A stretch of 64,000 bases of DNA from an uncultured Caulobacteraceae bacterium (GCA_964235945.1 CAXSDV010000003.1:32601-96600), one strand, 5' to 3'. Counted from the first letter of the stretch, positions 7,214 through 31,434 are shown. The notes: generated by a model from the sequence alone, not told the origin. Program-made: numbers and translations.

Positions 7214-8104
7214 GTGAAAGGCATCGTCATGGCCGCGGGGGACGCGGCCGCCCTGCGCCCGGCCACCCTCACCGTCGCCAAGGGCCTCCTGCCCATCTAC
7301 GACAAGCCCATGGTCTACCACCCGATCAGCACCCTGATGCTGGCGGGGGTGCGCGACATGCTGATCGTCACCACGCCCCGGGCGCGGTCCCAGTTCGAGG
7401 CGTGCCTGGGCGACGGGTCGCGCTTCGGCGTGAACTTCAGCTACGCCGAGCAGGCGGAGCCGCGGGGCCTGGCGCAGGCCTTTCTGATCGGCGAGCGCTT
7501 CCTGGACGGCGGGTGCGCCGCCATGATCCTGGGCGACAACATCTTCTTCGGCGCGGGGCTGACGGAGAACCTGCGGGACGCCGCCGCCCTCAGCTCCGGC
7601 GCGCGCGTGTTCGCCAGCCGGGTGCGCGCGCCCGAGCGCTACGCGGTGGTGGGTTTCGACGCGGAGCACCGCGCGGTGTCGCTGGAGGAGAAGCCCGTCG
7701 CCCCCGCCTCCGACTGGGCGGTGACCGGGCTCTACTTCTACGACGCGGACGTGGTGGAGATCGCCAAGGCGGTGCGCCCCTCGGTGCGGGGCCTGCTGGA
7801 GATCACGGACGTCAACCGCGCGTACCTGGCGCGAGGCACGCTGGACGTGCGGCGGCTGCGGCGCGGCGAGTCCTGGCTGGACACCCGCCGCCACGACTCC
7901 CTGTCGGAGGCGGCCGGCTTCATTCGCGCGCTCGAACACCGCCAAGGGCTCAAGATCGCCTGCCCCGAGGAGGTGGCGCTGCACAACGGCTGGCTCACCC
8001 CGGACGAGTGCGCCGCCCGCGGCCGCGCCCTGGGCAAGACCGACTACGGCCGCTACCTGATGGAGATCGCCGGCGCCCAGGGCGCGGCGGTGCGGGCGGG
8101 CTGA
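7214..8104 (+). CDS. rfbA: Glucose-1-phosphate thymidylyltransferase paralog with a degenerate N-terminal nucleotide-binding loop
   Basis: Collinear with RmlA over its full length ([45 protein letters not shown]). However, the GGSGTRL loop reads AAGDAAAL and [10 protein letters not shown] reads WLDTRRHDSL. GTG start lies directly after the rfbD stop. Confidence 0.75.
   Translation: MKGIVMAAGDAAALRPATLTVAKGLLPIYDKPMVYHPISTLMLAGVRDMLIVTTPRARSQFEACLGDGSRFGVNFSYAEQAEPRGLAQAFLIGERFLDGGCAAMILGDNIFFGAGLTENLRDAAALSSGARVFASRVRAPERYAVVGFDAEHRAVSLEEKPVAPASDWAVTGLYFYDADVVEIAKAVRPSVRGLLEITDVNRAYLARGTLDVRRLRRGESWLDTRRHDSLSEAAGFIRALEHRQGLKIACPEEVALHNGWLTPDECAARGRALGKTDYGRYLMEIAGAQGAAVRAG
7715..7783 (+). 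repeat. 69-nt tract identical to 10834-10902 (inside rfbA paralog 1)
   Basis: tgggcggtgaccgggctctacttctacgacgcggacgtggtggagatcgccaaggcggtgcgcccctcg is identical in both rfbA copies. Flanking sequence is clearly diverged. Confidence 0.9.
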
Positions 8105-9340: not shown

Positions 9341-10336
9341 GTGACCGGACCGCGCGTCACGGTGGTGGTGGTCGCCTACCAGTCGGCCGGCTACCTCCAG
9401 CCCTGCGTCGACTCGCTGGCGGCCCAAAGCTTCACCGATTTCGAGGCGGTGGTGGTGGACAACGCCTCCACCGACGGCTCGGTGGACGCCCTGCGCCTGC
9501 CGGACGCGCGCTTCCGGGTGGACCGGGCGGGCGCCAACCTGGGCTTCGCCGCCGCCAACAACCGTGCGGTGCGCGCGAGCGCCGCGCCCCACGTCGCCCT
9601 CCTGAACCCGGACGCCGTGGCCGACCCCGGCTGGCTGGCGGCGCTGGTGGCGGCGGCGCAGGCCGATCCGCGCCGGGCGAGCATAGGCTCCCTGCAGATG
9701 CGGCTGGAGGACGCGGGGCGCCTCGACGGGGTGGGCGACGTTTGGCACGCGGCGGGCCTGGCCTGGCGCGCGGGGGAGGGCTGGACCGCCGACCGCGCCC
9801 CCGGCGACGGCCCCATCCTCGGCCCCTGCGGCGCCGCCGCCCTCTACGACCGCCGCGCCTTCCTGGAGGCCGGCGGCTTCGAGGAGCGCTTCTTCTGCTA
9901 TTGCGAGGACGTGGACCTGGCGCTGCGCCTGCGCCTGCTCGGCCACGCCTCCTGGCGAGCCTCGGCGGCGGTGGTGCGCCACGCGGGCTCGGCCATATCG
10001 GGGCGGGCGAGCGACTTCACCCTGTTCCACGGTCACAGGAACCGGGTGTGGACCTTCCTGCGCAACACGCCGGGAGGCTGGTTCTGGGCGCTCCTGCCCT
10101 TCCACCTCGCCTTCAACCTGCTCTACCTGGGGCTGGCGCTGCGGCGCGGGTTCCATCGGCCCGTGTGGAAGGCCTATACGGCGGCGTGGGCGGGCCGGGC
10201 CCCCATGCGGGAGGCGGCGCGCCGTCTTCCCCGGGGGAGCTTCCGGCGCCTCCTGCCCGTGGTGGTGTGGGCGCCCTGGGCGCCCTGGTCCCGGCTGCTC
10301 AAGCCCGGACCCTTGGTGGAGTCGGACGCGCGATGA
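9341..10336 (+). CDS. Glycosyltransferase family 2 (rhamnosyltransferase-like)
   Basis: Part of ORF 9020..10336, starting at GTG 9341. [62 protein letters not shown]...[13 protein letters not shown] (GT2 DxD/ED motifs), followed by a C-terminal TM segment. The stop overlaps the next ATG (ATGA). Confidence 0.8.
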
Positions 10337-11208
10337 AGGGTCTGATCCTGGCCGGCGGCTCCGGCACGCGGCTCGCGCCCGTGACGCACGCGCTCTGCAA
10401 GCAGCTCCTGCCCATCTACGACACGCCCATGATCTACCACCCCGTGTGCACGCTGATGCGCGCGGGGGTGCGCGAGATCCTGATCATCTCCACCCCGCGC
10501 GACACCCCGCTGCTGCGCGACCTCTTGGGCGACGGCTCCGCCTGGGGCGTGCGCTTCGAGTACGTGGTGCAGGACCACCCGCGAGGGCTGGCCGACGCCT
10601 TCATCCTGGGCGAGCGCTTCATCGCGGGCGGGCCCTCCGCCTTGATCCTGGGCGACAACCTGTTCCACGGGGCGGGGCTGTCCGACCTGCTGCGCCAAGC
10701 CGCCGGCCACGACGCGGGCGCGCGCGTGTTCGCCTACCAGGTGCGCGACCCCGAGCGGTACGGCGTGGTGGAGTTCGACGCGCAGGGGCGCGCCCTGTCC
10801 ATCGAGGAGAAGCCCACGCGCCCCCGCTCCGAATGGGCGGTGACCGGGCTCTACTTCTACGACGCGGACGTGGTGGAGATCGCCAAGGCGGTGCGCCCCT
10901 CGCCCCGGGGCGAGATCGAGATCACCGACATCAACCAGGCCTACCTCGACCGCGGAGACCTCCGCGTGGAGCGCCTGGGCCGCGGCTACGCCTGGCTGGA
11001 CACCGGCACCCACGACTCGCTGCTGGAGGCGGGCGACTTCATCAAGGCCATCGAGCACCGCCAGGGGCTGAAGGTCGCCTGCCCCGAGGAGATCGCCCTG
11101 CACCAGGGCTGGATCGACCCGGACGCGGTGGCCGCGCTGGGTCGCGCCATGGGCGGGGCGGACTACGGCCGCTACCTGCTGGAGGCCGCCGCCGAGGCGG
11201 GGGCTTGA
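10333..11208 (+). CDS. rfbA: Glucose-1-phosphate thymidylyltransferase (canonical copy)
   Basis: [37 protein letters not shown]..., [21 protein letters not shown]. All RmlA signature elements are intact. ATG 10333 overlaps the GT2 stop. Confidence 0.92.
10834..10902 (+). repeat. 69-nt tract identical to 7715-7783 (inside rfbA paralog 2)
   Basis: Exact identity with the copy in rfbA paralog 1, read directly from the sequence. Confidence 0.9.
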
Positions 11209-13157: not shown

Positions 13158-14654
13158 ATGCTGCCGCACGATCTGCGGGATCATCGGGCGCTGCGCGTGG
13201 ACACCTCAATCCAGACCGGGCGGGCCGCGCCCGCCGCGGCTGGGGCCGGGCCGCCGCTGGTGGTGGACCTGGACGGCACGCTGGTGCGCTCGGACCTGCT
13301 GGTCGAGTCGTTCCTGGCGCTGGTCTCCGCCTCCCCCGGCCGCGCCCTCGCCGCCCTGTGGGCGCTGCGCCGGGGCAAAGCCGCCTTCAAGGCGGCGGTG
13401 GCCGACCACGCGGCGGTGGAGGCCGCGACCCTGCCCTACGACGAGGACGTGCTGGCGGCCGTGCGCGCCGCCCGCGCCGAAGGCCGCCCCACCGTGCTGG
13501 CCTCCGCCTCCGACGTGCGGCTGGTGCGCGCGGTCGCCGCCCACCTGGACGCCTTCGACGCGGTGCTGGGCTCCGAGCCCGGGACCAACCTCGCCGGCGA
13601 ACGCAAGGCGGACGCCCTGGCGGCGCGCTACGGCGAGGGCGGCTTCGACTATGTGGGCGACCACCCGGTCGACCGGGCCGTGTGGACTCGCGCGCGCCGG
13701 GCGCTCGTGGTGCGCCCCTCCGCCCGCTTCGCGCGCCGGCTGGAGCGCGAGGGCCTGGTCGTCGAGCCGCTGGGCGTGCGTCGGCCGGCGTTGCGGCCCC
13801 ACCTGAGGGCGCTGCGGCCGCACCAGTGGCTCAAGAACGCGCTGATCTTCGCGCCGCCCCTGGCGGGCCACGCCCCGCCGCCGGCCCTGCTGGCCTGCCT
13901 GCTCGCCTTCGTCAGCTTCAGCCTGTGCGCGTCCAGCGTGTACGTGCTCAACGACCTGCTGGACCTCGCCAGCGACCGCGACCACGCGCGCAAGCGTCGG
14001 CGGCCCTTCGCCAGCGGCGACGTGCCGCTGGCGCACGGCGCGCTCATGGCGCCGCTGCTGCTGCTGGCGGCCGTGGCGGTCGGGGCTTTCCTGCCCGGCC
14101 GGTTCCTGATGGTGCTGGCCGGCTATTTCGCCCTGACCCTGTCCTACTCGCTGGGGCTCAAGCGCTTGGTGATGATCGACGTGGTGACGCTGGCCTGCCT
14201 GTACGGCGCGCGCCTCTTGGCGGGGAGCGCGGCGTCCGACGTGCTGTTGTCCCACTGGCTGGAGGCGCTGGCGGTGTTCCTGTTCCTGAGCCTGGCGCTG
14301 GTGAAGCGCTTGGCCGAGCTCGTGGACCGCATCGCCGCCGGCAAGGGCGACCCCGCGGGCCGCGGCTACCGGCTGAGCGACCTGCCCATGGTGGAGGCCA
14401 TGGCCGCCGCCTCCGGCTTCGTGGCGGTGGTGGTGCTGGCGCTCTACCTCAACAGTCCGGACGTGGGGGTGTTGTACCGCTATCCCCACCGGCTGTGGCT
14501 GATCTGCGTGGTGGTGCTCTACTGGGTGAGCCGCATGCTCATCACCGCCCACCGGGGCGAGATGCACGACGACCCGGTGGTCTACGCCGTGCGCGACCGC
14601 GCCAGCCAGGTGTGCGGCCTGCTCTGCGCGGCGGTGGTGGCCTGCGCCCTGTGA
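13158..14654 (+). CDS. HAD phosphatase / UbiA prenyltransferase fusion (decaprenyl-phosphate phosphoribosyltransferase-like)
   Basis: Part of ORF 12900..14654, starting at ATG 13158. The N-terminal ~190 aa form a HAD domain (VVDLDGTLVRSD, VLASASD). The C-terminus is a multi-TM UbiA domain with RPHQWLKN, YVLNDLLDLASDRDHARKRRRPFASG and 7-8 hydrophobic segments. Confidence 0.8.
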   Translation: MLPHDLRDHRALRVDTSIQTGRAAPAAAGAGPPLVVDLDGTLVRSDLLVESFLALVSASPGRALAALWALRRGKAAFKAAVADHAAVEAATLPYDEDVLAAVRAARAEGRPTVLASASDVRLVRAVAAHLDAFDAVLGSEPGTNLAGERKADALAARYGEGGFDYVGDHPVDRAVWTRARRALVVRPSARFARRLEREGLVVEPLGVRRPALRPHLRALRPHQWLKNALIFAPPLAGHAPPPALLACLLAFVSFSLCASSVYVLNDLLDLASDRDHARKRRRPFASGDVPLAHGALMAPLLLLAAVAVGAFLPGRFLMVLAGYFALTLSYSLGLKRLVMIDVVTLACLYGARLLAGSAASDVLLSHWLEALAVFLFLSLALVKRLAELVDRIAAGKGDPAGRGYRLSDLPMVEAMAAASGFVAVVVLALYLNSPDVGVLYRYPHRLWLICVVVLYWVSRMLITAHRGEMHDDPVVYAVRDRASQVCGLLCAAVVACAL

Positions 14655-14676
14655 CCCGGCCCCCGAGCGTCCGCCC

Positions 14677-15198
14677 GTGATCCATCGCCTGATCCGCGGC
14701 GGCTTCGCCCTGCGTCGGCGCGCCGCCCTGATGCGGCTGACCGCCGCCTACGCCGCCTTCGCCGCCGTGACCACCTGCGTGAACCTGCTGGTCCAGTGGG
14801 CGGTGGTGCGCGTGGCGACGCCCCTGCACCTGGTCGACCCCAAGCTCCTGGTGCTGCCGGCCCTGGTCGCCGGCACCGGGGCGGGACTCGTGCTCAAGTA
14901 CGTGCTCGACAAGCGCTTCATCTTCCGCGACCGCACGGGCGGCGCCTCCCAGCACGTGCGCAAGTTCGGCCTGTACGCGGTGATGGGCCTGGCCACGACC
15001 GCCCTGTTCTGGGGGGCCGAGCTCCTGGCCCACCTGCTGAGCCCCGACCCGCGCGCCATGTACGTCGGCGGCGCCCTGGGACTGGCGGTCGGCTACGTGG
15101 TCAAGTACCGGCTGGACCGGCGCTTCGTGTTCGTCCAGGCCAGCAACGACGCGGCGGCGGAAGCGGCGGCGGCGGTTCCCGCGCCGGTTCTCCCGTGA
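14677..15198 (+). CDS. GtrA family membrane protein
   Basis: 173 aa with 4 TM segments. Contains the paired GtrA motifs KYVLDKRFIFR and KYRLDRRFVFV. Confidence 0.85.
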   Translation: MIHRLIRGGFALRRRAALMRLTAAYAAFAAVTTCVNLLVQWAVVRVATPLHLVDPKLLVLPALVAGTGAGLVLKYVLDKRFIFRDRTGGASQHVRKFGLYAVMGLATTALFWGAELLAHLLSPDPRAMYVGGALGLAVGYVVKYRLDRRFVFVQASNDAAAEAAAAVPAPVLP

Positions 15199-16523
15199 TC
15201 CTCTCCGGCTGGGGCCGCTTCCCCCGCGTCGACTGCGTGGTCCACCCGGTCCGCGACGCGGGGGACGCCCGCGCGGCGGTGGCCGGGGCGGGGCCGGGCG
15301 GCGTCATCGCGCGGGGCGCCGGCCGCGCCTACGGCGACGCGGCGCTCAACCCCCACGGCGTGCTCGCCATGGACCGCGCCGCGCGCTTCATCGACTTCGA
15401 CCCGGCCACGGGCGTCCTGACCGCCGAGGCGGGGGTGCTGCTGCGCGACCTGGTGGCCACCTTCGCGCCGCGCGGCTGGTTCGCCCCCGTCACCCCCGGC
15501 ACCCAGTTCGTGACCCTGGGCGGCATGGTCGCCTGCGACGTCCACGGCAAGAACCACCACGGCGCGGGCTCCATCTCGCGCCACCTGCTCTGGCTGGATC
15601 TGCTGCTGGCCGACGGCTCCGTGCGCCGCTGCTCGCCGGACGAGGACGCGGAGCTGTTCCACGCCACCTGCGGCGGCATGGGGCTCACCGGCGTGGTGCT
15701 GCGCCTGGCGCTCAAGCTCCTGCCCATAGAAACGGCCGTCATCCGCCAGACCACGGTGGCCGCGCCCAACCTGGACGCGGCCATGGCCGCCTTTGAGGAG
15801 AACCGCGCCGCAACCTATTCGGTGGCCTGGATCGACTGCCTGTCCCAGGGCCGCAGCCTGGGCCGCAGCCTCGTCCACCTGGGAGAGCACGCCCGCGCGG
15901 ACGAGCTTGCGCCCGAACGGCGCGGCGCCTCCAAGCCCAAGCGGCCCCGGCGCGTGCCGTTCGACTTTCCGGGCCTGGCGCTCAACCGGTTCAGCGTGGC
16001 CGCCTTCAACGCGCTCTACTACGCCCGCGGCCGCCCCGCCCCGGGGGGCGAGGTCTCGTGGGTCGACCTGCAGACCTACTTCTACCCGCTGGACGCCCTG
16101 CTCGACTGGAACCGCATCTACGGGCCGGGCGGCTTCGTGCAGCACCAGTGCGTGCTGCCGCCCGAGACCGCGCGCGCGGGGCTGACCGAACTCCTGACGC
16201 GCATCGCCGCGCGCGGGGCGGGCTCGTTCCTGGCGGTGCTCAAGCTCCTGGGCGAGGCGGGTCCGGGCCCGCTCTCCTTCCCACGCCCGGGCTACACCCT
16301 GGCGCTGGACTTCCCCGCCACCGCCGCCAACCTCAGCCTGCTCGTGGAGCTGGACGCGGTGGTCGCCGATCACGGCGGGCGCCTCTACCTCGCCAAGGAC
16401 GCGCGAACAGGGGCTTCCATGCTGCGCGGCTACCCCGACCTCCCCCGGTTCCGGGCGGTGCGCGACCGCGTCGATCCCGCCCGCCGCTTCCGCTCGCTGC
16501 AATCCGAAAGGCTCGGCCTGTGA
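15195..16523 (+). CDS. dprE1: FAD-dependent decaprenylphosphoryl-beta-D-ribose 2'-oxidase homologue
   Basis: Part of ORF 14796..16523, starting at GTG 15195 (GTGA overlap with the gtrA stop). LSGWGRFP, IARGAGRAYGD, VTLGGMVACDVHGKNHHGAGS, DAELFHATCGGMGLTGVV, YFYPLDALLDWNRIYGPGGFVQHQCVLP, GGRLYLAKD. Matches M. tuberculosis DprE1 block by block, as I recall that sequence. Confidence 0.85.
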   Translation: MILSGWGRFPRVDCVVHPVRDAGDARAAVAGAGPGGVIARGAGRAYGDAALNPHGVLAMDRAARFIDFDPATGVLTAEAGVLLRDLVATFAPRGWFAPVTPGTQFVTLGGMVACDVHGKNHHGAGSISRHLLWLDLLLADGSVRRCSPDEDAELFHATCGGMGLTGVVLRLALKLLPIETAVIRQTTVAAPNLDAAMAAFEENRAATYSVAWIDCLSQGRSLGRSLVHLGEHARADELAPERRGASKPKRPRRVPFDFPGLALNRFSVAAFNALYYARGRPAPGGEVSWVDLQTYFYPLDALLDWNRIYGPGGFVQHQCVLPPETARAGLTELLTRIAARGAGSFLAVLKLLGEAGPGPLSFPRPGYTLALDFPATAANLSLLVELDAVVADHGGRLYLAKDARTGASMLRGYPDLPRFRAVRDRVDPARRFRSLQSERLGL

Positions 16524-17263
16524 ACACCCTGCAAGGCCCCGTGCTGATCCTGGGCGCGCGCTCGGACATCGGCCGGGCGCTGGCCCGCGCCTACGCCGCC
16601 GAGGGGCTGTCGGTGATCCTGGCCGCGCGCCGGGCGGGCGAGCTGGAAGCGGACGCCGCCGACCTCGCCGTCCGCGCGAACGGGGCCGGCGCACGCACCG
16701 TTGAGCTGGACGTGCTGGACGCCGACCCCCGCGCCTTCTTCGACGCCCTTGGGGAGACGCCGCGCACGGTGGTCAGCGTGGTGGGCCTGTTGGGCGACCA
16801 GCGCCGCGCCGAGACCGACCCCGCCTACGCCCGCCAGGTGATCGACACCAACTTCACCGGCCCCGCCGCCCTCATGGCCGAGGCCGCCGAGCGCCTGCTG
16901 GCGGCGGGCGGCGGCTGCATCGTGGGGGTGAGCTCGGTGGCGGGCGAGCGCGGGCGCAAGTCCAACTACGTCTACGGCGCGGCCAAGGCGGGGCTGACCG
17001 CCTGGCTGTCGGGCCTGCGCCACCGCTTGGCGGGCTCCCCCGTGCGGGTGATCACCGTCAAGCCGGGCTTCGTCGACACGCGCATGACCGCGGGCATGAA
17101 CCTGCCCAAACCGCTGACCGCCCAGCCGGAGGAGGTGGCGCGCCTGGTGCTCGCCGCCCAGCGCCGCGGGCGCGAGGTGGTGTACGCCAAGCCCGTCTGG
17201 TGGGCGGTGATGGGGGTGGTGCGCCACCTGCCCGAGCCCGTGTTCAAGCGCATGAAAGTCTGA
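16520..17263 (+). CDS. dprE2: Short-chain dehydrogenase, decaprenylphosphoryl-2-keto-ribose reductase homologue
   Basis: Part of ORF 16058..17263, starting at GTG 16520 (GTGA overlap). VLILGARSDIGRALA, VGLLGDQ, SSVAGERGRKSNYVYGAAKAG, VITVKPGFVDTRMT, and a C-terminal VVRHLPEPVFKRMKV. Collinear with DprE2 as recalled. Confidence 0.8.
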   Translation: MNTLQGPVLILGARSDIGRALARAYAAEGLSVILAARRAGELEADAADLAVRANGAGARTVELDVLDADPRAFFDALGETPRTVVSVVGLLGDQRRAETDPAYARQVIDTNFTGPAALMAEAAERLLAAGGGCIVGVSSVAGERGRKSNYVYGAAKAGLTAWLSGLRHRLAGSPVRVITVKPGFVDTRMTAGMNLPKPLTAQPEEVARLVLAAQRRGREVVYAKPVWWAVMGVVRHLPEPVFKRMKV

Positions 17264-17299: not shown

Positions 17300-17343
17300 G
17301 TCGCGTGGTCCGCCGTAATAAAGGTGTTTGCGCCATGGCCTCC

Positions 17344-17700
17344 GACCGCAAGGTGGTGCTCGTCGTCGAGGACGAGCCGCTCATCATGGTGGACGCCATC
17401 CAGACCCTGGAGGCGGCCGGCTTCGAAGTGATCGACGCCTACGACGCCGAGCACGCCCTGGTGCAGCTCGACACCCGGCCGGACGTGATGGCGATTTTCA
17501 CGGACGTGAACATGCCCGGCCGCTACGACGGAGTGGCCCTGGCGCGCCTCGTCCACGAGCGGCGGCCCGACGTGCAGATCCTCGTCACCTCCGGCATGCA
17601 GGTGATCCGCGAGGACGACCTGCCCGACGGCGGCCGCTTCGTGGCCAAGCCCTACGACGGCGAGCAGGTGGCGGGGATCATCCACGACCTGATCGGCTGA
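17344..17700 (+). CDS. Single-domain response regulator (receiver only)
   Basis: Part of ORF 17200..17700, starting at ATG 17344. KVVLVVEDEPLIMVDA..., phospho-acceptor context AIFTDVNMPG, VTSG, VAKPY. No output domain. Confidence 0.85.
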   Translation, partial: DRKVVLVVEDEPLIMVDAIQTLEAAGFEVIDAYDAEHALVQLDTRPDVMAIFTDVNMPGRYDGVALARLVHERRPDVQILVTSGMQVIREDDLPDGGRFVAKPYDGEQVAGIIHDLIG

Positions 17701-17932
17701 AGCGCTCGGCCAGTTCGGGCGCGTAGAGCACCGCCAGGCAGAGTGCGACGCCCACCACCGCGCACGCCACGGCCACGACCGCCAGCACCAGTTCGGTGCG
17801 CAGCGGCAGCCACCATCCCGCGCGGGCCCAGGCGGGCAGGCGCGCCACCTCCGGCGGGACGGCGCGCCGCGCCAGGCGGAACACGCGGCCGGGCCCGCGC
17901 CGCAGGTCGATGGGCGGCTCGGGTTCGGCCAC
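17678..17932 (-). CDS. Small hypothetical membrane protein
   Basis: 84-aa ORF, 13 nt downstream of the ku stop on the same strand. One clear TM segment (LVLAVVAVACAVVGVALCLAVLY). Third positions are G/C-rich. Its 3' end overlaps the response-regulator gene by 23 nt. Confidence 0.45.
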   Translation of the reverse strand: MAEPEPPIDLRRGPGRVFRLARRAVPPEVARLPAWARAGWWLPLRTELVLAVVAVACAVVGVALCLAVLYAPELAERFSRSGRG

Positions 17933-17945
17933 GGGAGGGCTTCGG

Positions 17946-18905
17946 TCAGCCCGCGCGCTTGCGGGCCCGGGCGGGGGCGGCGACCGGCTCGGGCGCCGCG
18001 GCGCTCGCGGCCGGAGTCTTCGCGGCGCGCTTGGCGGGTGCGGGCTTGGACGGCTCCGCCTTGGTCTGGCCGGCCTTCGCCTTGGCCGCCGGCTTGGCCG
18101 CGGTCTTGGGCGCGGCGGGGGCGGGGGCGCTGCCGCGCTGCAGGCTGGCGCGCAGGGCGGCCATGAGGTCGATCACGTTGGTGTCGTCCGGCTCGGGCGC
18201 GGCCCCCACCGGCACGCGGCCGGCGGTCTTCTCCGCGATCAGCGCCTTGAGCGCCTCCTCGTAGCGGTCGACGAAGCCGCTCGGGTCGAACGGGCCCTTG
18301 CGCTGGTCGATGATGGCCTGGGCGATGCTGAGCATGGCCGGGTCGGGAGTGACGCTCTCCACCTCGGCGAAGGCTTCGCGCGCGTCCTTCACCTCCGCGG
18401 CGGAGCGCAGGCTCCACGCCATCAGGCCCTCGCCGTGGGGCTCCAGCGCCAGCAGGCGCTCGCGGGTGGACAGCACCACGCGCCCCAGGGCGATCTGGCC
18501 GGAGGCGCGCATGGCCTCGCGGATCACGGCGTAGGCCTCCTGGCCGATCTTGCCGTCCGGGGCCAGGAAGTAGGGGTGGTCCCAGTAGGTGCGGTCGATC
18601 TCCGCCTCCGGCACGAAGCGTTCGATGTCCAGCGTCTTGGTGCTCTCCAGCCGCACGGAGCGGATCTCCTCGTCGGAAAGCAGCACGTACTGGCCCTTCT
18701 CGACCTCGAAGCCCTTCACCAGGCTGCCGCGCTCCACCGGCCCCGTGTCCGGGTCGGTGGTGATCATGCGGATGCGGTTGTTGGTGGCGGGGTTGATCAG
18801 GTTGAAGTGCACGTCGCCCGCCGCCGAGGTCGCCGTGTAGAGCGCCACCGGGCAGGTCACGAGCGAGAGCTTCAGGTGGCCCCGCCAGGTCGGACGCAGC
18901 GCCAT
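17946..18905 (-). CDS. ku: Ku protein (non-homologous end joining)
   Basis: Part of ORF 17946..18962, starting at ATG 18905. MALRPTWRGHLKLSLVTCPVALYTATS..., YFLAPDG, LGRVVLSTRERL. Long Lys/Ala/Pro-rich C-terminal tail. Confidence 0.92.
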   Translation of the reverse strand: MALRPTWRGHLKLSLVTCPVALYTATSAAGDVHFNLINPATNNRIRMITTDPDTGPVERGSLVKGFEVEKGQYVLLSDEEIRSVRLESTKTLDIERFVPEAEIDRTYWDHPYFLAPDGKIGQEAYAVIREAMRASGQIALGRVVLSTRERLLALEPHGEGLMAWSLRSAAEVKDAREAFAEVESVTPDPAMLSIAQAIIDQRKGPFDPSGFVDRYEEALKALIAEKTAGRVPVGAAPEPDDTNVIDLMAALRASLQRGSAPAPAAPKTAAKPAAKAKAGQTKAEPSKPAPAKRAAKTPAASAAAPEPVAAPARARKRAG

Positions 18906-18960
18906 GTCCACACGTCTCCCGGCGGCCCGCCGGAAGGGCCGGGCCGCGAAGACTCCCACC

Positions 18961-22526: not shown

Positions 22527-22883
22527 TTGAGAACCGTCCTGACCGCCGCCCTCGCCGCGGCCTGCGTGTGCGCCGCCGCGGCGCCCGCCTCCGCCTCGCC
22601 CTACGCGATCGACAAGCTGCACGACCGCGAGAACCGCATCCAGGACGCGGTGGACCAGCGCCGCGCGTCCACCCGGGTGGGCGACCAGCTGATCCGGGTC
22701 AAGAAGCTGGAGGAGCGGATGCGCGCGCGCCACGGGTCCAACCTGACGCGCGCCGATTTCGAGGTCCTGAACGCCAGGCTCGACGCGCTCGAAGGCGTGC
22801 GCCACCGCCACCGCCGCGGCGCCGACCACGGCCGCAGCGGGCCCCACCAGATCACGACCACCACGACCACCGTCAGGCGTTGA
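22527..22883 (+). CDS. Small secreted hypothetical protein
   Basis: 118 aa. TTG start preceded by AGGGGGA. Signal peptide MRTVLTAALAAACVCAAAAPASA, a charged helical middle, and a His/Arg- and Thr-rich tail (ITTTTTTVRR). Confidence 0.55.
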   Translation: MRTVLTAALAAACVCAAAAPASASPYAIDKLHDRENRIQDAVDQRRASTRVGDQLIRVKKLEERMRARHGSNLTRADFEVLNARLDALEGVRHRHRRGADHGRSGPHQITTTTTTVRR

Positions 22884-24621
22884 CCTCCAGGGCGGCCGCC
22901 AGCGCGCCGGCGTAGCGGGCGCGGGCGCGCAGGAGCCGCGCGTGCTCGGCCGGCCAGCCCGCGTGGGCGTCCGCCGCCATGCTCCACAGGCCGAGCTGGA
23001 AGGCGAGGTAGGCGAGCGTGTGGAAGGCGAGCCGTTCGCCGTCCACCACGAGGTCCCGCGCGAGGCGGGCGGCGGCCGCGGCGTCCAGGGCGAGTTCCAC
23101 CTGGGCGCCCGCCACGTCCCAGGCCACGTCCTGGGCGCCGATCAGGTCGTGGGCGCGGGCGTGGTCCAGCGCGTCGGTCTTGAGCAGGCCGCCGTCGGGC
23201 GGGAGCATCCACTCGTGCAGGTGCAGCCGGTTGTCGGTCCACACGCGCCGGCCGCGCGCGGCGAGGGCGGCCAGGCGCGGCTCCCACGCGTCCAGCGGTC
23301 GCGCGGCCTCTTCGCCCAACGCTTCCGCGGCGTTGGCGCGCGCCATGGCGAGGAGGGTCCGCAGGTCCGCCCCGTCGCCTTCCCCGGCGGGGAAAGCCCG
23401 CGCGCGGAAGGCGAGGTGGGCGCCCACCGCGGCGGCGGCGCGTCCGCGGTCGGCGGGCGTGTCCGCCAACGGGCGCGCGCCCTCCAGCCAAGGCTCCACC
23501 AGCCAGCCGCCGCGCAGCGCCAGCGGCTCGGGCGAGAGGCCGGCGGCGTGCAGCGCCCGGGCGCGGGCGAGCTTGGCCGCGCCCTCGCGGCCGCCCAGCC
23601 CCGCCCACTTGAGGCGGAACGCGCCGCGCGCCGTCTCCAGGCGGAACTTGAGCCGCTCGGCGCCGGCGTCCACGGCGGGCCAGTGCGCCTCCTCCGCGTA
23701 GAGGCGCGCGCGCCAGGCCCCGCCGGACAGGTCCTCCAGCGGGCCGAGGGCGGGGCCGACCACGTCCTCCAGTCGCCGCGCCAGCCCCCGAACCGCGTCG
23801 TGCGGGTCGAGCTCGGGACGGTCGCCGCCCGCGACGCGGCGGGTCGCCGCCCAGCGCGCGCGGCGCACCTCCCCCGCCTGCGGGCCGAGGTCGCCGGCGT
23901 GGCCGGGCAGGGCCACCAGCCGCGCGCGGTCCACGCCGGCCGCCTCCAGCGCGTCCAGCGCCGCGGCGAGGGAGGAGCCCGACAGGCCCGGTCCCTCGTC
24001 GGCCACCGCCCAGGTGCGCCCGGCCTCGCGCCGCCACTCGGCCAGGAGCGGCGGGGCGACGGCGAGCCGGCGGTCGAACGGGTGGCCGACCGGGCGCACG
24101 GTGACGGGAACGGGGGCGCCCACCGCCGCCGCCGCCATGGCCGCTAGCCCCGCGCCGATGGAGCGCAGGCCCAGCACCCGGCTTTGCGCGTCCAGCCCCG
24201 CGGCGCGCGCGGCCTCCGCGTGGCCCTCGGGCTGGAGCGCATAGAAGGCGTAACCCTCCGCCAGCCGCACCTCGACCTCCGGCGGGAAGGGCAGGGCGGC
24301 CAGCGCTTCGGCCGAGGCGGGCGCGCACGGCGCGTCGCCCTCGAAGCCCGCGCGCCAGGAGGCGTCCACACGCCGGGCGAGATCGGTCAGCCACGTCATC
24401 GCGGCGGCGTGCAGAGGGGTGCGCGCGTCTTCGCCGGTATCCGCGAACTCGGCGTCGACCAGGCCCTGGACGAGGGCGGCGGCGTCCACGAAGGCGTCCG
24501 TCAGCCGGGCGTGGCGCGCCGCTCCGGCGGGCGCGGCCGCCAGCCCCGCCAGTTCGGCGCGGATGCGGCGGAGTTCGGCGGCGGGGTCCAGCCGGGAGAC
24601 GGCGTCGCCGTAGACGATCAC
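22873..24621 (-). CDS. Hypothetical 582-aa two-domain protein (C-terminal half weakly kinase/APH-like); last gene of the ino1 operon
   Basis: Part of ORF 22873..24819, starting at GTG 24621 (GTGA overlap with the upstream phosphatase stop). The C-terminal half has FRLKWAG...HLHEWMLPPDGGLLKTDALDH..DLIGAQDVAWD, reminiscent of aminoglycoside/choline-kinase-type folds. The mid-region AVADEGPGLSGSS is weakly PRPP-loop-like. Function unknown. Confidence 0.6.
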   Translation of the reverse strand: MIVYGDAVSRLDPAAELRRIRAELAGLAAAPAGAARHARLTDAFVDAAALVQGLVDAEFADTGEDARTPLHAAAMTWLTDLARRVDASWRAGFEGDAPCAPASAEALAALPFPPEVEVRLAEGYAFYALQPEGHAEAARAAGLDAQSRVLGLRSIGAGLAAMAAAAVGAPVPVTVRPVGHPFDRRLAVAPPLLAEWRREAGRTWAVADEGPGLSGSSLAAALDALEAAGVDRARLVALPGHAGDLGPQAGEVRRARWAATRRVAGGDRPELDPHDAVRGLARRLEDVVGPALGPLEDLSGGAWRARLYAEEAHWPAVDAGAERLKFRLETARGAFRLKWAGLGGREGAAKLARARALHAAGLSPEPLALRGGWLVEPWLEGARPLADTPADRGRAAAAVGAHLAFRARAFPAGEGDGADLRTLLAMARANAAEALGEEAARPLDAWEPRLAALAARGRRVWTDNRLHLHEWMLPPDGGLLKTDALDHARAHDLIGAQDVAWDVAGAQVELALDAAAAARLARDLVVDGERLAFHTLAYLAFQLGLWSMAADAHAGWPAEHARLLRARARYAGALAAALEVNA

Positions 24622-25136
24622 GGGGCGGCGGCGTCCTCGCGCAGGTGGCGGTAGGCGATCGCCGCGAAGGCGTCGAAGTCCGGCGCGGCGATCCCCCGCG
24701 CCTCCAGCCACGCCGCCCAGGCCCCGTACTGGGCGGGCGAGGGTGAGACCTGCCAGCGGGCGGCCTTGGCGCGCTCCAGCGCGTCCAGGGGGGTCGCCCC
24801 CGCGTCCACCAGCGCGCACAGCGCCAGCAGGGCCGAGCGGCCCACCCCTTCGCGGCAGTGGACCACCGCGCGGCGGCCGCGCACGAACGCCACGCCCCGG
24901 TCGAGGTCGGCGCCCGTGACGGCGTGGTGGTCGGGGGTGGGCAGGTGCAGGAAGGCGATCCCCGCCGCCGCCAGCGCCCCCGGGTCGTCGCGGGCCTCCG
25001 CGCGCAGGTCCACGGCCGCGGTCACGCCCTGCGCGCCCAGGGCGGGCCAGGCCGAGGTCGGCAGCTCGCCCGCCACGGCGAGGTCCGGCGTGATCCAGTC
25101 GAGGTTCAACGCCCCGGCCGGCGCGGCCCCGGTCAC
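24618..25136 (-). CDS. Dual-specificity / PTP-like phosphatase (HCX5R)
   Basis: Part of ORF 24618..25808, starting at GTG 25136 (GTGA overlap). 172 aa with the active-site loop VVHCREGVGRSAL. Confidence 0.8.
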   Translation of the reverse strand: MTGAAPAGALNLDWITPDLAVAGELPTSAWPALGAQGVTAAVDLRAEARDDPGALAAAGIAFLHLPTPDHHAVTGADLDRGVAFVRGRRAVVHCREGVGRSALLALCALVDAGATPLDALERAKAARWQVSPSPAQYGAWAAWLEARGIAAPDFDAFAAIAYRHLREDAAAP

Positions 25137-26064: not shown

Positions 26065-26679
26065 TCAAGGGCGGGGCTCCTGTGGGATGGCCGGGGCCAG
26101 GGCGTTGACGCGCAGCACCTTGGCCCCCCAGTCGCCGGTGACGACGGTGGTGACGGAGGCGGGCGAGATCTCGAGGCGGTGGTGCAGGTCCAGGCCGATT
26201 CCCAGCCACCAGCACACCAGCGCCTTGACGATGTCCGAGTGGCACACGGCCACCACCGTCCCGTCCGGGTGGGCGGCCGCCATCTCCTGCACGGCGCGGG
26301 CGGCGCGCACCTGCGCCTCGCCCAGGCTCTCGCCGTTCGGCGGGCGGTTGAGCGAGCGGCGCTCGTTCCAGGCGGTCCAGCGCGGGTCGGCTTGCAGTTC
26401 GTCGAAGGTCATCCCCGTCCAGTCGCCGAAGTCGACCTCGACCAGGCCGGGCGTCTCCACCAGCGGGGCGCCCAGCGCCTCGGCCAGGGGGGCGGCGGTC
26501 TCCCGCGCGCGCTGGAGCGGGCTCGTGTGGACGGCGTCGGCGCCCTCGGGGATCAGCGTGGCGACCCGGCGCGCCTGGGCGTGGCCCTCGTCGGACAGGC
26601 CCACCCCCTCCATGCGCCCGCACAGCACCCGGTTCAGCCGGCCGTGCGTCCCGTGGCGCACGAGGTGCAGGAGGGTCAC
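26065..26679 (-). CDS. Histidine phosphatase family protein (phosphoglycerate-mutase-like)
   Basis: Part of ORF 26065..26862, starting at GTG 26679 (GTGA overlap with the ino1 stop). [11 protein letters not shown] (RHG motif), [19 protein letters not shown]. Confidence 0.85.
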
Positions 26680-27788
26680 GCCGGCCCCGCGATGAAGGCC
26701 TCCACCTTGGCGCGCGCCTCCTCGTCGGTGAACTGCACGGCCGGGCTCTTCATGAACCAGGCGGAGGGGCCCTCCAGCGCGCCGCCCACCCCGCGGTCGA
26801 GCGCCAGCTTGGCGCAGCGCACCGCGTCGATCACCACGCCGGCGCTGTTGGGGCTGTCCCACACCTCCAGCTTGAGCTCGATGTTGAGCGGCACGTCGCC
26901 GAAGGTCGTGCCCTCCAGGCGGATGAAGGCGAACTTCCGGTCGGTCAGCCAGGGCACGAAGTCGCTGGGGCCGACGTGGACGTCGCCGGCGGGCAGGGGC
27001 GTCTCCAACTGGCTGGTGACGGCCTGGGTCTTGCTGATCTTTTTGGACTCGAGCCGCTCGCGCTCCAGCATGTTCTGGAAGTCGGCGTTGCCGCCCACGT
27101 TGAGCTGGTAGGTGCGGTCCAGCCGCACGCCGCGCTCGCGGAACAGGTTGGCCAGCACCCGGTGGACGATGGTGGCGCCCACCTGGCTCTTGATGTCGTC
27201 GCCCACGATGGGCAGGCCCGCCGCTTCGAAGCGCGCGCGCCAGGCGGGGTCCGACGCGATGAACACCGGCACGCAGTTGACGAAGCCGCAGCCCGCCGCC
27301 AGCGCCGCCTCCGCGTAGTGCTCCGTGGCCGCCTGGCTGCCCACGGGCAGGTAGGAGATCACCACGTCCGCTCCCGCCTCGCGCAGGGCGGCGGCCACGT
27401 CGCAGGGCGCTTCGGCCGCTTCGGGCACCTCGTCCTTCAGGTACTTGCCGATGCCGTCCAGCGTCGGCCCCCGCCGCACGACCACGCCGCGGGGCTCGGG
27501 CCGGGCGAACACGTGGGTGTTGTTGGGGCCGGCGAAGATCGCCTCCGACACGTCGCGCCCCACCTTGGCGGCCGACACGTCAAAGGCGGCGGCCACCTCG
27601 ATGTCCTCGATGCGGTAGCCGCCCAGGTCCGGGTGCATGAGCCCCGGGACGGGCGCGTTGGAGCGCACGCCCGAATAGTGCGCCAGCCCCTGCACGAAGG
27701 AGGAGGCGCAGTTGCCCACGCCCACGATCCCCACGCGCAGCTTGCGGCGCGACGGTTCGGTCGAGGGGGGGTGCAGCGATCCGTCCAT
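26676..27788 (-). CDS. ino1: myo-Inositol-1-phosphate synthase
   Basis: 370 aa. [112 protein letters not shown]. Near-collinear with mycobacterial/archaeal-type Ino1 as recalled. Confidence 0.93.
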
Positions 27789-28221: not shown

Positions 28222-29331
28222 GTGGCTGAGACCGTCCTGATCACCGGCGGGGCCGGCTTCATCGGCCGTTACGTGGCCGACGAGCTTCTCGCCCGGGGCT
28301 GCCACGTGCGGGTGCTCGACTCGCTGATCGAGCAGGTCCACGGCGGCCGGGGCCGGCCGCCGGAACTGTCGAAGGAGGTAGAGCTCGTCGTGGCCGACGT
28401 GCGCGACGAAACGGAGGTGCTCAAGGCGCTCCACGGCGTGGACAGCGTGGTCCACCTCGCCGCCGAGGTGGGGGTGGGCCAGAGCATGTACGCGGTGGAC
28501 CGCTACACCTCCGTCAACGACCACGGCACCGCGGTGCTGTTCCAGCAGCTGATCGCCAAGCCCGTGCGGCGGGTGGTGACGGCCTCCTCCATGTCGATCT
28601 ACGGCGAGGGGCTGTACCGCGACGCGGACGGCGCCTTGCACGAAGAGGTGGTGCGTGGGGGCCGCAACGCCGACGGGAGCTGGGACCCGCAGGACGCCCG
28701 GGGCCGCCCGCTCACGCCGGCGCCTACGCCCGAGTGGAAGCGTCCGACGCTGGCCAGCATCTACGCCCTGGGCAAGTACGTGCAGGAGCGCATGACGCTG
28801 ACGCTCTGCCCGCCCTACGGCATGGAGTGCTCGGCCCTGCGCCTGTGGAACGCCTACGGGCCGGGCCAAGCGCTCTCCAACCCCTACACGGGCGTGCTGG
28901 CGATCTTCTCCTCGCGCCTCGCCAACGGCCAGGCCCCGCTCGTGTTCGAGGACGGGATGCAGCAGCGCGACTTCGTGCACGTGCGCGACGTGGCGCGCGC
29001 CTTCGCCGCCGCGCTCTACGAACCCCGGGCGGACGGCCAGGTGTTCAACATCGGCTCGGGCGACGTATTCACGGTCAACCAGGTGGCCGCCGCGGTGGCC
29101 AAGGCCATGGGCGTGGACGCCGAGCCGCAGGTCGCCGGCAAGGCGCGCACCGGCGACATCCGCCACTGCATCCCCGACATCTCCAAGGCGCGCGGCGAGC
29201 TGGGCTTCGCGCCGAGGGAGGACTTCATGGCGGGCCTCGCCGAGCTCGCCGAATGGGTCGGCCGCCAGGAGGCGGTGGACAACGTGGCCCACGCCGCCAA
29301 GGAGCTGGAGACGCGGGGGCTGGTCGTATGA
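28222..29331 (+). CDS. NAD-dependent epimerase/dehydratase (extended SDR) with a large internal insertion
   Basis: 369 aa, GTG start. [27 protein letters not shown] (YxxxK), and a ~40-aa insertion (DADGALHEEVVRGGRNADGSWDPQDARGRPLTPAPTP). Confidence 0.8.
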   Translation: MAETVLITGGAGFIGRYVADELLARGCHVRVLDSLIEQVHGGRGRPPELSKEVELVVADVRDETEVLKALHGVDSVVHLAAEVGVGQSMYAVDRYTSVNDHGTAVLFQQLIAKPVRRVVTASSMSIYGEGLYRDADGALHEEVVRGGRNADGSWDPQDARGRPLTPAPTPEWKRPTLASIYALGKYVQERMTLTLCPPYGMECSALRLWNAYGPGQALSNPYTGVLAIFSSRLANGQAPLVFEDGMQQRDFVHVRDVARAFAAALYEPRADGQVFNIGSGDVFTVNQVAAAVAKAMGVDAEPQVAGKARTGDIRHCIPDISKARGELGFAPREDFMAGLAELAEWVGRQEAVDNVAHAAKELETRGLVV

Positions 29332-30468: not shown

Positions 30469-31434
30469 TTGACCGAGACCATGCGCGCCGCCGTCGTCAC
30501 CGGGGCCGGCGTCGCCGAGACCCGCGACGCCCCACGCCCGGAGCCCGGCCCCGGCCAAGTGCGGCTGAAGCTGGAGGGGTGCGGGGTGTGCGCCTCCAAC
30601 CTCGGGCCCTGGTCCGGGCCGGAGTGGATGCAGTTCCCCACCGCCCCCGGCGACCTCGGCCACGAGGGCTGGGGCGCCGTGGACGCGGTGGGCGAGGGCG
30701 TGGAGGGGCTCGCCGTGGGCGACCGGGTGGCGGCGCTCAGCTTCAAGAGCTACGCCCAGTACGATCTGGCCGAGGCCGACGCGGTGGTGCGCCTGCCCGA
30801 GAGTCTGGCCGGCCGCGCCTTTCCGGGCGAGCCGCTGGCCTGCGCCATGAACATCTTCCGCAGGAGCCAAGTGGAGGCGGGTCAGACCGTGGCCATCGTC
30901 GGCATAGGCTTCCTGGGCGCGATCCTGACGCGGCTGTGCGTGCAGGCGGGCGCCCGGGTGATCGCGATCTCGCGCCGCGCCTACAGCCTGCAGGTGGCGC
31001 GCGACATGGGGGCCGCCGAGACCATCCCCATGGACGACCACTGGGCGATCATCGAGCAGGTGAAGCAGCTCACCGACGGCGTGTTCTGCGACCGGGTGAT
31101 CGAGGCGGTGGGCAAGCAATGGCCGCTGGACCTCGCCGCCGAGCTGACCCGCGAGGGCGGGCGGCTGATCATCGCCGGCTACCACCAGGACGGGCCGCGC
31201 CAGGTGAACATGCAGATGTGGAACTGGCGCGGCTTCGACGTGGTCAACGCCCACGAGCGCGACCCGAAGATGTACGTGCGCGGCCTGCGCGAAGCGGTGG
31301 AGGCGGTGAGCTCCGGCCGGCTCGACCCCGCGCCGCTGTTCACCCACACCTACCCGCTGGAGCGGCTGGGCGAGGCGCTGGACGCGACGCGCGACCGGCC
31401 GGACGGCTTCCTCAAGGCGCTGGTGACCCTGTGA
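30469..31434 (+). CDS. Zinc-dependent alcohol/polyol dehydrogenase (MDR family)
   Basis: 321 aa. TTG start preceded by GAAGGA; an ATG at 30481 is an alternative. GCGVCASN, GHEGWG, GDRV, and the Rossmann motif VAIVGIGFLG. Confidence 0.8.
   Translation: MTETMRAAVVTGAGVAETRDAPRPEPGPGQVRLKLEGCGVCASNLGPWSGPEWMQFPTAPGDLGHEGWGAVDAVGEGVEGLAVGDRVAALSFKSYAQYDLAEADAVVRLPESLAGRAFPGEPLACAMNIFRRSQVEAGQTVAIVGIGFLGAILTRLCVQAGARVIAISRRAYSLQVARDMGAAETIPMDDHWAIIEQVKQLTDGVFCDRVIEAVGKQWPLDLAAELTREGGRLIIAGYHQDGPRQVNMQMWNWRGFDVVNAHERDPKMYVRGLREAVEAVSSGRLDPAPLFTHTYPLERLGEALDATRDRPDGFLKALVTL

Follow-up and report, generated by a model that had tools for sequence, protein, structure and literature searches.

Prediction of a donor operon for lipid-linked D-arabinofuranose in an uncultured Caulobacteraceae bacterium

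D-Arabinofuranose (D-Araf) is chiefly known as a sugar of the mycobacterial cell wall. The DPA pathway of Mycobacterium tuberculosis comprises Rv3806c, Rv3807c, Rv3789, DprE1 (Rv3790) and DprE2 (Rv3791), and the 5'-dephosphorylation step is assigned to Rv3807c. Glycosylation of pilin is known from Pseudomonas aeruginosa as well, where it protects against pilus-specific phages. D-Araf glycosylation has been reconstituted in E. coli from the genes PsPA7_6246-6249, TfpW, TfpX and the pilin PilA; TfpW, a GT-C glycosyltransferase, is encoded apart from the sugar genes (bioRxiv 10.1101/2020.04.19.049825). An operon of Rhizobium sp. IRBG74 is genetically linked to the D-arabinosylation of Nod factors (PMC5080398). 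Such pentofuranose systems were already generalised by Kelly et al. 2024 (PNAS; PMC11127046), who demonstrated biochemically that a HAD-UbiA fusion makes polyprenyl-P-ribofuranose from PRPP and that the HAD aspartate is needed for dephosphorylation. In the same work variants with SMR/GtrA-type transporters were noted, DprE1/E2 homologues were stated to accompany Araf-containing glycan systems, and candidates in Rhizobium, Burkholderia and Xanthomonas were presented (supplementary Fig. S12).

The locus described here is located in a 64-kb stretch of DNA from an uncultured Caulobacteraceae bacterium, referred to as the window. Four genes on the plus strand span positions 13158-17263:

13158..14654, plus strand: gene 1, HAD-phosphatase/UbiA fusion, 498 aa (ATG 13158, TGA 14652-14654)
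13254..13772, plus strand: HAD phosphatase domain of gene 1, about residues 33-205; DxDGT (D37, D39, G40, T41), K150, G167/D172
13791..14651, plus strand: UbiA-type PPPRS domain of gene 1, about residues 212-498; N265-D266-x2-D269-x3-D273-R274, K383-R384-x2-E387
14655-14676: gap of 22 nt between genes 1 and 2
14677..15198, plus strand: gene 2, GtrA family, 173 aa (GTG start 14677)
15195..16523, plus strand: gene 3, DprE1 homologue, 442 aa (GTG 15195 within the GTGA overlap with gene 2)
16520..17263, plus strand: gene 4, DprE2 homologue, 247 aa (GTG 16520 within a second GTGA overlap)
61701-62645: second, stand-alone UbiA gene

The coordinates, the 22-nt gap, the two GTGA overlaps and the common strand had been read correctly in an earlier note on this DNA. 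The four genes most likely form one co-transcribed operon for the synthesis of a lipid-linked D-Araf donor for a surface glycan, and their order (UbiA-GtrA-E1-E2) is kept in near and distant relatives.

By published gene order, the locus agrees with PsPA7_6245-6249 of P. aeruginosa PA7/Pa5196 in the succession of DPPR synthase, GtrA-like protein, DprE1 and DprE2. DprE1 is cytoplasmic in P. aeruginosa, as it is here, and just as TfpW is unlinked from the sugar genes, the GT-C appears to be unlinked in the Caulobacteraceae bacterium. However, the phosphatase of P. aeruginosa is an Rv3807c-like protein encoded on its own (6245) and not a fused HAD domain, and the acceptor is type IV pilin. The noe operon (noeC, H, O, P, N) of Rhizobium sp. 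IRBG74 and Azorhizobium caulinodans has the UbiA-GtrA-FAD oxidase-SDR order in common with the window, and the respective proteins of the window and IRBG74 share 51, 46, 51 (NoeC-type oxidase) and 50% identity. In contrast to gene 1, the IRBG74 UbiA protein has no HAD domain; the acceptor is a lipo-chitooligosaccharide and the SDR gene is followed by a gene for the 401-aa polytopic NoeP, the presumed transferase, of which the window contains no homologue. With M. tuberculosis, the chemistry, the enzyme families and the GtrA-DprE1-DprE2 order are shared, whereas the phosphatase is a PAP2 enzyme there and a fused HAD domain here, the UbiA gene is distant there and adjoins the other module genes here, the benzothiazinone-target Cys387 of DprE1 is replaced by Ala, and Emb/Aft transferases are not found nearby. 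The Citrobacter youngae O1/O2 systems (ORF12-15) have an N-terminal HAD phosphoribose-phosphatase-PPPRS fusion and a small-membrane-protein transporter in common with the locus, but they use a MATE transporter, an adjacent GT-C (GT136) and at most one epimerase (none in O1, an SDR in O2), whereas a GtrA-type transporter and a DprE1/E2 pair are encoded here. Of the components of a three-component pentofuranose system, the fused donor synthase, the GtrA-type candidate transporter and the DprE1/E2 epimerase are thus present, and a co-encoded GT-C is absent from the window and the 7 kb upstream.

Gene 1 had been described in the earlier note as a UbiA-family phosphoribosyltransferase-like protein, which holds for its C-terminal part (Pfam UbiA, residues 237-462, E 3.7e-20); the HAD phosphatase domain at the N terminus (Pfam HAD, residues 35-174, E 4e-11), whose catalytic motifs are intact, had been missed. 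The NCBIfam model NF006088/PRK08238 matches over the full length with 612 bits (cut-off 351), and the equivalog model for mycobacterial DPPRS reaches 160 bits, below its cut-off of 207. In an alignment of 24 sequences, the residues of the HAD motifs and of the PPPRS motifs NDxxDxxxD and KRxxE are invariant. For the UbiA domain, DPPRS of M. tuberculosis (8j8j) is the best match among solved structures both by sequence (E 6e-25, 35% identity over 201 positions) and by fold (TM 0.81, rmsd 3.2 Å, E 8.5e-10 versus 7.5e-5 for the next UbiA homologue). The AlphaFold model used for the fold search (pLDDT 88.5, pTM 0.83) places the HAD domain close to HAD-IB/SerB-type phosphatases, e.g., 3fvv and 5is2. 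Because residues 1-28 lack conservation and are disordered in the model (pLDDT below 50), translation may start slightly downstream of the ATG at 13158. From these similarities, gene 1 most likely encodes a HAD-family phosphoribose 5-phosphatase and a UbiA-type polyprenyl-phosphate 5-phosphoribosyltransferase in one protein (PRP-PPPRS).

The HAD domain also bears on the completeness of the pathway. No PAP2 (Rv3807c-type) 5-phosphatase was detected by Pfam in the module or in the window, and the fused HAD domain with its intact DxDGT motif is found instead. The designation of the module as a "complete" DPA donor module is therefore tenable, but only thanks to this overlooked domain. The similarity of the HAD domain to SerB-type folds, and the JGI naming of homologues as [quoted passage not shown], would also fit a fusion of an ordinary aromatic prenyltransferase with a phosphatase of the phosphoserine type, in a cluster that is not a sugar-donor pathway. 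We regard this as extremely improbable: gene 1 reaches no more than 27.6 bits with the 4-hydroxybenzoate prenyltransferase model, compared with 160 for DPPRS and 612 for PRK08238, the fold matches M. tuberculosis DPPRS far better than other UbiA proteins, gene 1 is coupled to DprE1/E2 homologues and a separate UbiA gene is present at 61701-62645. A ubiquinone-type UbiA function of gene 1 was rejected from the NCBIfam scores and the fold comparison.

Gene 2 encodes a small membrane protein of the GtrA family (Pfam GtrA_DPMS_TM, E 3.6e-11; NCBIfam gtrA_1, 147 bits, cut-off 50), for which no relative of solved structure was found by sequence. In 33 of 60 related loci a GtrA-type ORF lies beside the fusion gene, nearly always between fusion and E1. 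Judged by similarity and position, gene 2 appears to be the counterpart of Rv3789, PsPA7_6247 and NoeN of IRBG74, and its product may serve the lipid-linked pentose as a flippase or as an organising hub. A flippase role of GtrA proteins is unproven even in the model systems.

Gene 3 belongs to the Pfam family FAD_binding_4 and is by far best matched in NCBIfam by the DprE1 model (428 bits, under the equivalog cut-off of 500). The closest protein in the PDB is DprE1 of M. tuberculosis (E 1e-85, 41.5% identity over 434 positions). The DprE1 motifs GRAYGD, GGMVACDVHGKNHH and WNRIYGPGGF, to which attention had been drawn before, are all present. H132, K134, Q334, Q336, K367 and K418 are kept in gene 3 and in 64 of 64 homologues (K418 in 63, with one gap). 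No signal peptide was predicted. The protein is accordingly annotated as a putative FAD-dependent polyprenyl-phospho-ribose 2'-oxidase. Gene 4 is an SDR with 313 bits to NCBIfam PRK07102 (cut-off 267) and 187.5 bits to the DprE2 model, below the equivalog cut-off of 250. DprE2 of M. tuberculosis (21gq chain C) is the best PDB match (E 1.8e-36, 35% identity), 16 orders of magnitude ahead of the next SDR (5e-20), and the Ser and YxxxK motifs of both proteins align. A C-terminal RHxPxxxFxK motif claimed previously holds only if K and R are interchanged (RHLPEPVFKR here, RHIPRSIFRK in M. tuberculosis). Gene 4 is predicted to be the 2'-keto reductase which finishes the ribo-to-arabino epimerisation.

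The functional core proposed in the earlier note, a set of D-Araf donor enzymes, is thereby borne out, as among solved structures DPPRS, DprE1 and DprE2 of M. tuberculosis clearly lead over other family members, and the catalytic residues have been retained.

The equivalog cut-offs for the mycobacterial enzymes, which the homologues of DPPRS, DprE1 and DprE2 all miss (160 vs 207, 428 vs 500 and 187 vs 250), count against this assignment, and the latter two may also be read as a sign that the lipid-linked pentofuranose is not D-Araf but ribofuranose or another epimer, formed by E1/E2 enzymes of different regio- or stereochemistry. In line with this, ribofuranose and xylofuranose systems exist (PMC11127046), the fusion occurs without E1/E2 in 20 of 80 related loci, and neighbours of the DprE1 active site differ from M. 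tuberculosis in gene 3 (W384Y, N385T, C387A, Y314F). Nevertheless, a sugar other than D-Araf seems improbable to us. The xylofuranose systems rely on one SDR epimerase of another kind (ORF13 type), while Araf glycans pair with DprE1/E2 homologues (PMC11127046); the DprE1 catalytic residues are all invariant, and genetic evidence connects both the IRBG74 operon, with 46-51% identity, and the P. aeruginosa genes with D-Araf.

We consider it likely, from comparison with these enzymes, that the module makes a polyprenyl-phosphate-linked D-Araf donor on the cytoplasmic side of the inner membrane for a GT-C encoded elsewhere. Homology, conserved catalytic residues, gene order and coupling suggest the following course, in which substrates, product, lipid carrier and acceptor are predicted. 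The UbiA-type domain of gene 1 would join PRPP and polyprenyl phosphate, probably undecaprenyl phosphate, to polyprenyl-P-ribose-5-P, and the fused HAD domain would remove the 5-phosphate to give polyprenyl-P-ribose. The DprE1 homologue would then oxidise C2' with FAD, and the resulting 2'-keto intermediate would be reduced by the DprE2 homologue to the arabino configuration, yielding polyprenyl-P-D-arabinofuranose. The GtrA-family protein may help in export to the periplasm or organise the complex, and an unlinked GT-C glycosyltransferase encoded elsewhere in the genome would move D-Araf onto an envelope glycan. Decaprenyl phosphate is unlikely to be the carrier, which is probably of the undecaprenyl type (C55, not C50), because undecaprenyl phosphate is expected in Gram-negatives (PMC11127046) and uppP is encoded in the window. 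If the prediction is true, an uncultured alphaproteobacterium bears D-Araf on a surface glycan, which may change its antigenicity.

The module is surrounded by the rhamnose, xylose and heptose genes mentioned in the earlier note, namely rmlB/D/A/C, a second rmlA, a UXS-like and a gmhB-like gene, and the presence of lpxK, waaA and msbA in the window confirms an LPS-producing Gram-negative. Since rhamnose, xylose and glycosyltransferase genes flank the module, the foremost candidate acceptor is a surface polysaccharide or LPS that contains rhamnose, and LPS is a plausible target of arabinosylation. In a relative with 78% identity, rml, UXS-like and GT2/GT1 genes likewise flank the module, and wzm/wzt and a large multidomain glycosyltransferase follow about 5 kb downstream, an arrangement which we take to be typical of ABC-transporter O-antigen loci. 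A D-Araf donor for another acceptor, be it a protein such as pilin, a capsule, an exopolysaccharide or a secreted lipo-oligosaccharide, is a possibility of lower but appreciable probability. Pilin in P. aeruginosa and Nod factors in rhizobia are the known uses, the module of Tardiphaga lies inside a Wzx/Wza/Wzz-type polysaccharide locus, and the window has no wzm/wzt, ligase or GT-C which would link the module to O-antigen. Besides the flanking genes in the window and in the 78% relative, the lack of pilin or nod genes in the window speaks for LPS.

The earlier statement that no GT-C is visible in the window is supported by Pfam, which assigned none of the 67 called genes to a GT-C family. With a hydropathy screen, too, no GT-C or GT-C-like polytopic protein was detected in the window, in which polytopic membrane proteins are limited to the two UbiA proteins (the fusion and the stand-alone one), UppP/BacA, TMEM175, MsbA and an SBF-like transporter; apart from housekeeping genes, the 7 kb upstream, available from a near-identical 163-kb contig, encode just a polyprenyl synthase and a GT2-GT2 protein. 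The absence of a GT-C from these regions counts against the proposed pathway, in which the use of the donor is a prediction. Among related loci, about half encode a polytopic membrane protein within 500 nt of the module, and three of those tested belong to Pfam GT87, presumably a GT-C family; 13 of 45 have no GT-C within about 8 kb. The frequent separation of donor operon and transferase has to be considered when such loci are annotated. Orphan operons with a transferase-free vicinity (about 30% of the proteobacterial loci, including this lineage) might feed a conserved, unrecognised acceptor system, although we think this unlikely. The form suggested for it is an unclassified GT-C family which adds D-Araf to the LPS core, to lipid A or to some component of the outer membrane, not to a strain-specific O-antigen side chain. 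If so, D-Araf would be common but overlooked in alphaproteobacterial envelopes.

Related genes had been attributed in the earlier note to a few proteobacteria, which is a large understatement. The fusion protein occurs in at least 584 GTDB species representatives, and its homologues in databases number more than 7,800; DprE1/DprE2 homologues usually accompany it, and NCBI maintains models dedicated to proteins of the system (PRK08238, PRK07102). The operon type has been described before and is present in hundreds of proteobacterial species, and the locus is one more example. As the pathway logic, the occurrence in Gram-negatives and the bioinformatic signature are published, no new question is opened; the locus adds another proteobacterial version of the pathway, HAD-fused and without Cys387, and its practical value is modest.

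The closest named homologues of gene 1 are from MAGs labelled Caulobacteraceae (69-78% identity), and a search of phage genomes yielded one weak partial match, which was discarded. A consensus scan for promoters and terminators gave nothing above shuffled expectation, and is uninformative at 75% G+C. The four genes have a G+C content of 0.74-0.77 and a GC3-rich codon usage, the same as in the remaining window. A recent horizontal acquisition from Actinobacteria was rejected, as the genes do not differ in composition from the remaining window and have their closest homologues in proteobacteria. Across independent assemblies the operon is intact and near-identical.

The four plus-strand genes of the module lie exactly at the coordinates of the earlier note according to the gene calls in the window, and the same four reading frames were chosen by a position-specific GC model:

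13158-14654, plus strand: gene 1, ATG start to TGA stop, 498 amino acids, HAD-UbiA fusion
14677-15198, plus strand: gene 2, GTG start after a gap of 22 nt, 173 amino acids, GtrA-family protein (Pfam, NCBIfam)
15195-16523, plus strand: gene 3, GTG start within a GTGA overlap, 442 amino acids, DprE1 homologue
16520-17263, plus strand: gene 4, GTG start within a second GTGA overlap, 247 amino acids, DprE2 homologue

The G+C content of the module matches that of the remaining window (75%). An independent Logan assembly contig carries an identical block of the four genes, and near-identical copies (gene 1 99% identical) are present on ENA metagenome contigs, so the operon is not an assembly artefact.

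The earlier note had described gene 1 as a UbiA-type protein. The UbiA domain is present (Pfam, residues 237-462), but the fused HAD hydrolase domain (residues 35-174), which is evident from Pfam, PRK08238 and fold matches, had been overlooked. Over its full length gene 1 scored 612 bits against the NCBIfam equivalog PRK08238 (cut-off 351), and 160 bits, under the cut-off of 207, against the equivalog for mycobacterial DPPRS. In an alignment of 24 sequences the HAD motif D37-x-D39-G-T with K150 and G167/D172 is invariant, as are the phosphoribosyltransferase motifs N265-D266-x2-D269-x3-D273-R274 and K383-R384-x2-E387. The AlphaFold model (pLDDT 88.5, pTM 0.83) is disordered in residues 1-28; its N-terminal domain matches the fold of HAD-IB/SerB-type phosphatases and the top fold match of the C-terminal domain is DPPRS of Mycobacterium tuberculosis (8j8j; TM 0.81, rmsd 3.2 Å, E 8.5e-10), which beats other UbiA folds by five orders of magnitude. 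By sequence, 8j8j is likewise the only PDB family match (E 6e-25, 35% identity). The first 28 residues (13158-13241) are not conserved and matches to homologues start at about residues 26-34; to judge from sequence and model, the true start codon may lie downstream, e.g., at GTG 13197.

The closest solved relative of gene 3, at E 1e-85 and with 41.5% identity across 434 aligned positions, is DprE1 of M. tuberculosis, whose residues H132, K134, Q334, Q336, K367 and K418 it retains. These catalytic residues are invariant across 64 homologues, with K418 present in 63 and a gap in the remaining one. For gene 4 it is DprE2 of the M. tuberculosis DprE1-DprE2 complex (E 1.8e-36, 35% identity), the next-best SDR following at E 5e-20. 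Scores against the corresponding NCBIfam equivalogs are under the cut-offs (428 bits versus 500 for DprE1, 187 versus 250 for DprE2); the proteobacterial versions have NCBI models of their own (PRK08238, PRK07102).

With M. tuberculosis DPPRS, DprE1 and DprE2 as closest solved relatives and the catalytic residues kept, the earlier reading as a D-arabinofuranose (D-Araf) donor module is essentially right. The operon very probably makes polyprenyl-phospho-D-arabinofuranose, and the predicted route would lead from PRPP via P-ribose-5-P, P-ribose and the 2'-keto form to the arabino product. Since the DprE1 homologue has no signal peptide, all steps would take place at the cytoplasmic face, after which the GtrA protein would help to export the donor for use by an unlinked transferase of the GT-C class. 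The term "decaprenyl" of the earlier note is probably a mislabel, as the presence of uppP in the window and the C55 carrier expected in Gram-negatives (PMC11127046) favor undecaprenyl phosphate.

The window operon is one more case of a known and widespread type of system. For ORF15 of C. youngae, a HAD-UbiA fusion, formation of polyprenyl-P-ribofuranose from PRPP was shown biochemically, and 5'-dephosphorylation requires the HAD aspartate (Kelly et al., 2024; PMC11127046). The same authors proposed a general scheme of three components, namely a donor synthase, a transporter (MATE or SMR/GtrA-type) and a GT-C, in which systems for Araf-containing glycans come with DprE1/E2 homologues; their candidate list includes Rhizobium, Burkholderia and Xanthomonas (PMC11127046). 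The gene order of the window also occurs in P. aeruginosa PA7/Pa5196, as PsPA7_6246 (DPPR synthase), 6247 (GtrA-like), 6248 (DprE1) and 6249 (DprE2). D-Araf glycosylation of the pilin PilA was reconstituted in E. coli from these four genes plus TfpW, TfpX and PilA itself; the P. aeruginosa DprE1 is cytoplasmic and the GT-C is unlinked from the sugar genes (bioRxiv 10.1101/2020.04.19.049825).

The Nod-factor arabinosylation operon on the symbiosis plasmid of Rhizobium sp. IRBG74 (NC_022536, our locus L089) comprises five genes, encoding a UbiA protein, a GtrA protein, an FAD oxidase, an SDR and a polytopic protein of 401 amino acids. The window proteins share 51, 46, 51, and 50% identity with the first four, whereas the IRBG74 UbiA protein lacks the HAD domain fused in gene 1 and the polytopic protein has no homolog within the window. 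Deletion of noeP abolished arabinosylation and deletion of noeN reduced it; noeN was assigned as a phosphatase in the published proposal (PMC5080398). Once the genes published as noeO, noeC, noeH and noeP are accounted for, the GtrA-family gene (L089, 6582-7004) must by elimination be noeN. The partial noeN phenotype resembles that of GtrA mutants of P. aeruginosa and M. smegmatis.

The distribution in "a few proteobacteria" assumed earlier was an understatement. At least 7,840 homologues of gene 1 were found by protein search (E ≤ 1e-20) and at least 584 GTDB species carry a relative in a scan of one genome per species. The species listed include Alpha-, Beta- and Gammaproteobacteria, with carriers in Rhizobium, Agrobacterium, Azospirillum, Rhodobacterales, Paraburkholderia, Burkholderia, Ralstonia, Xanthomonas, Stenotrophomonas, and Methylophilaceae. 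DprE1- and DprE2-like genes adjoin the fusion in 60 of the 80 best loci, and 33 of these 60 also contain a GtrA gene, almost always between the fusion and the DprE1 gene. This arrangement, shared by the window, is mostly alphaproteobacterial, whereas loci of the Beta/Gamma type have no GtrA gene at that position. The other 20 loci (L010, L014, L016, L030, L035, L036, L041, L045, L063, L065, L066, L075 and others) carry the fusion without DprE1/E2; in some (Celeribacter) a GtrA gene is the sole companion, and in many a polytopic protein is adjacent. Such loci probably encode systems for ribofuranose or another pentofuranose.

All 67 called genes of the window are covered by Pfam or contig annotation, and no GT-C family was found among them, in agreement with the earlier note; a hydropathy screen of the window likewise revealed no unassigned polytopic protein. 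We surveyed 45 DprE1/E2 loci, each flanked on both sides by 5 kb or more, for proteins of at least 330 amino acids with at least seven hydrophobic segments. Such candidates lie no more than 500 nt from the module in 22 loci and within 3 kb in 28, while 13 have none within about 8 kb, so donor operons unlinked to a transferase, including that of the window, form a common minority. The candidates are extremely diverse and mostly BLAST singletons. Out of 19 module-adjacent polytopic proteins compared with Pfam, three matched GT87, which we take to be a GT-C family, one matched DUF6311 and the others remained unmatched. Kelly et al. likewise describe the GT-C genes of such loci as mostly annotated as hypothetical proteins (PMC11127046).

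The module is preceded upstream by galE, rmlB, rmlD, rmlA and rmlC, a gmhB-like HAD phosphatase gene, a GT2 gene, a second rmlA, a UXS-like SDR gene and fpg/nei; galE and both rmlA copies exceed the NCBIfam cut-offs. The two rmlA (glucose-1-phosphate thymidylyltransferase) paralogues of this one locus (7214-8104 and 10333-11208) are both above the TIGR01207 cut-off, and the second is coupled to the GT2 gene (9341-10336). Farther upstream a GT1-like gene is found and, past the window start, a gene for a double-GT2 protein of 604 amino acids followed by housekeeping genes. Downstream are a single-domain response regulator gene, Ku and unrelated genes. The presence of lpxK, waaA and msbA at 50.6-55.4 kb identifies the host as an LPS-producing diderm.

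In the relative with a 78% identical gene 1 (L002/L003) the entire block from rml to the module is syntenic with the window. Some 5 kb further downstream, the relative carries the ABC-transporter genes wzm/wzt and a gene for a large multidomain glycosyltransferase, a combination that we read as typical of ABC-transporter-dependent O-antigen loci. Synteny stops just past the response regulator gene (17335-18911 versus L002/L003 14188-21473); beyond it the relative has genes for an RTX-like protease, a GT1, wzm/wzt and the large glycosyltransferase, whereas the window has Ku, DUF5961 and an outer-membrane-like protein. The break is a rearrangement point which parts the module from O-antigen export genes. 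The leading candidate acceptor is a rhamnose-containing LPS or surface polysaccharide, in view of the rhamnose, xylose and glycosyltransferase genes that flank the module and of the export genes next to it in the relative.

Residue 370 of gene 3 (16302-16304), which aligns with Cys387 of M. tuberculosis DprE1, the benzothiazinone-target cysteine, is Ala. Of the 64 proteobacterial homologues, 63 likewise have Ala at position 387, and all have Thr or Ser in place of N385. Judged by sequence, intrinsic insensitivity to covalent DprE1 inhibitors is expected of the proteobacterial DprE1-type enzymes.

The window contains a second large glycan-type cluster (24618-45740):

26065-26679: histidine phosphatase
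26676-27788: myo-inositol-1-phosphate synthase
28222-30410: two SDR epimerase/dehydratases
30469-32435: Zn-ADH and GFO/IDH/MocA oxidoreductase
33100-34185: GT4/GT1
34197-37491 and 44637-45740: four CgeB-like "Glyco_trans_1_2" paralogues
40961-41941: FemAB-type acetyltransferase
41947-43014: GT1
43011-43847: PIG-L deacetylase
43844-44626: DUF1698 methyltransferase

The combination of inositol-phosphate synthase, GT4 and PIG-L deacetylase is reminiscent of how mycothiol or inositol-glycoside synthesis begins. A gene for a protein of 582 amino acids without Pfam match overlaps a dual-specificity-phosphatase-like gene (24618-25136) by 4 nt, the pair spanning 22873-25136, and a further gene of this phosphatase type is located at 57041-57676.
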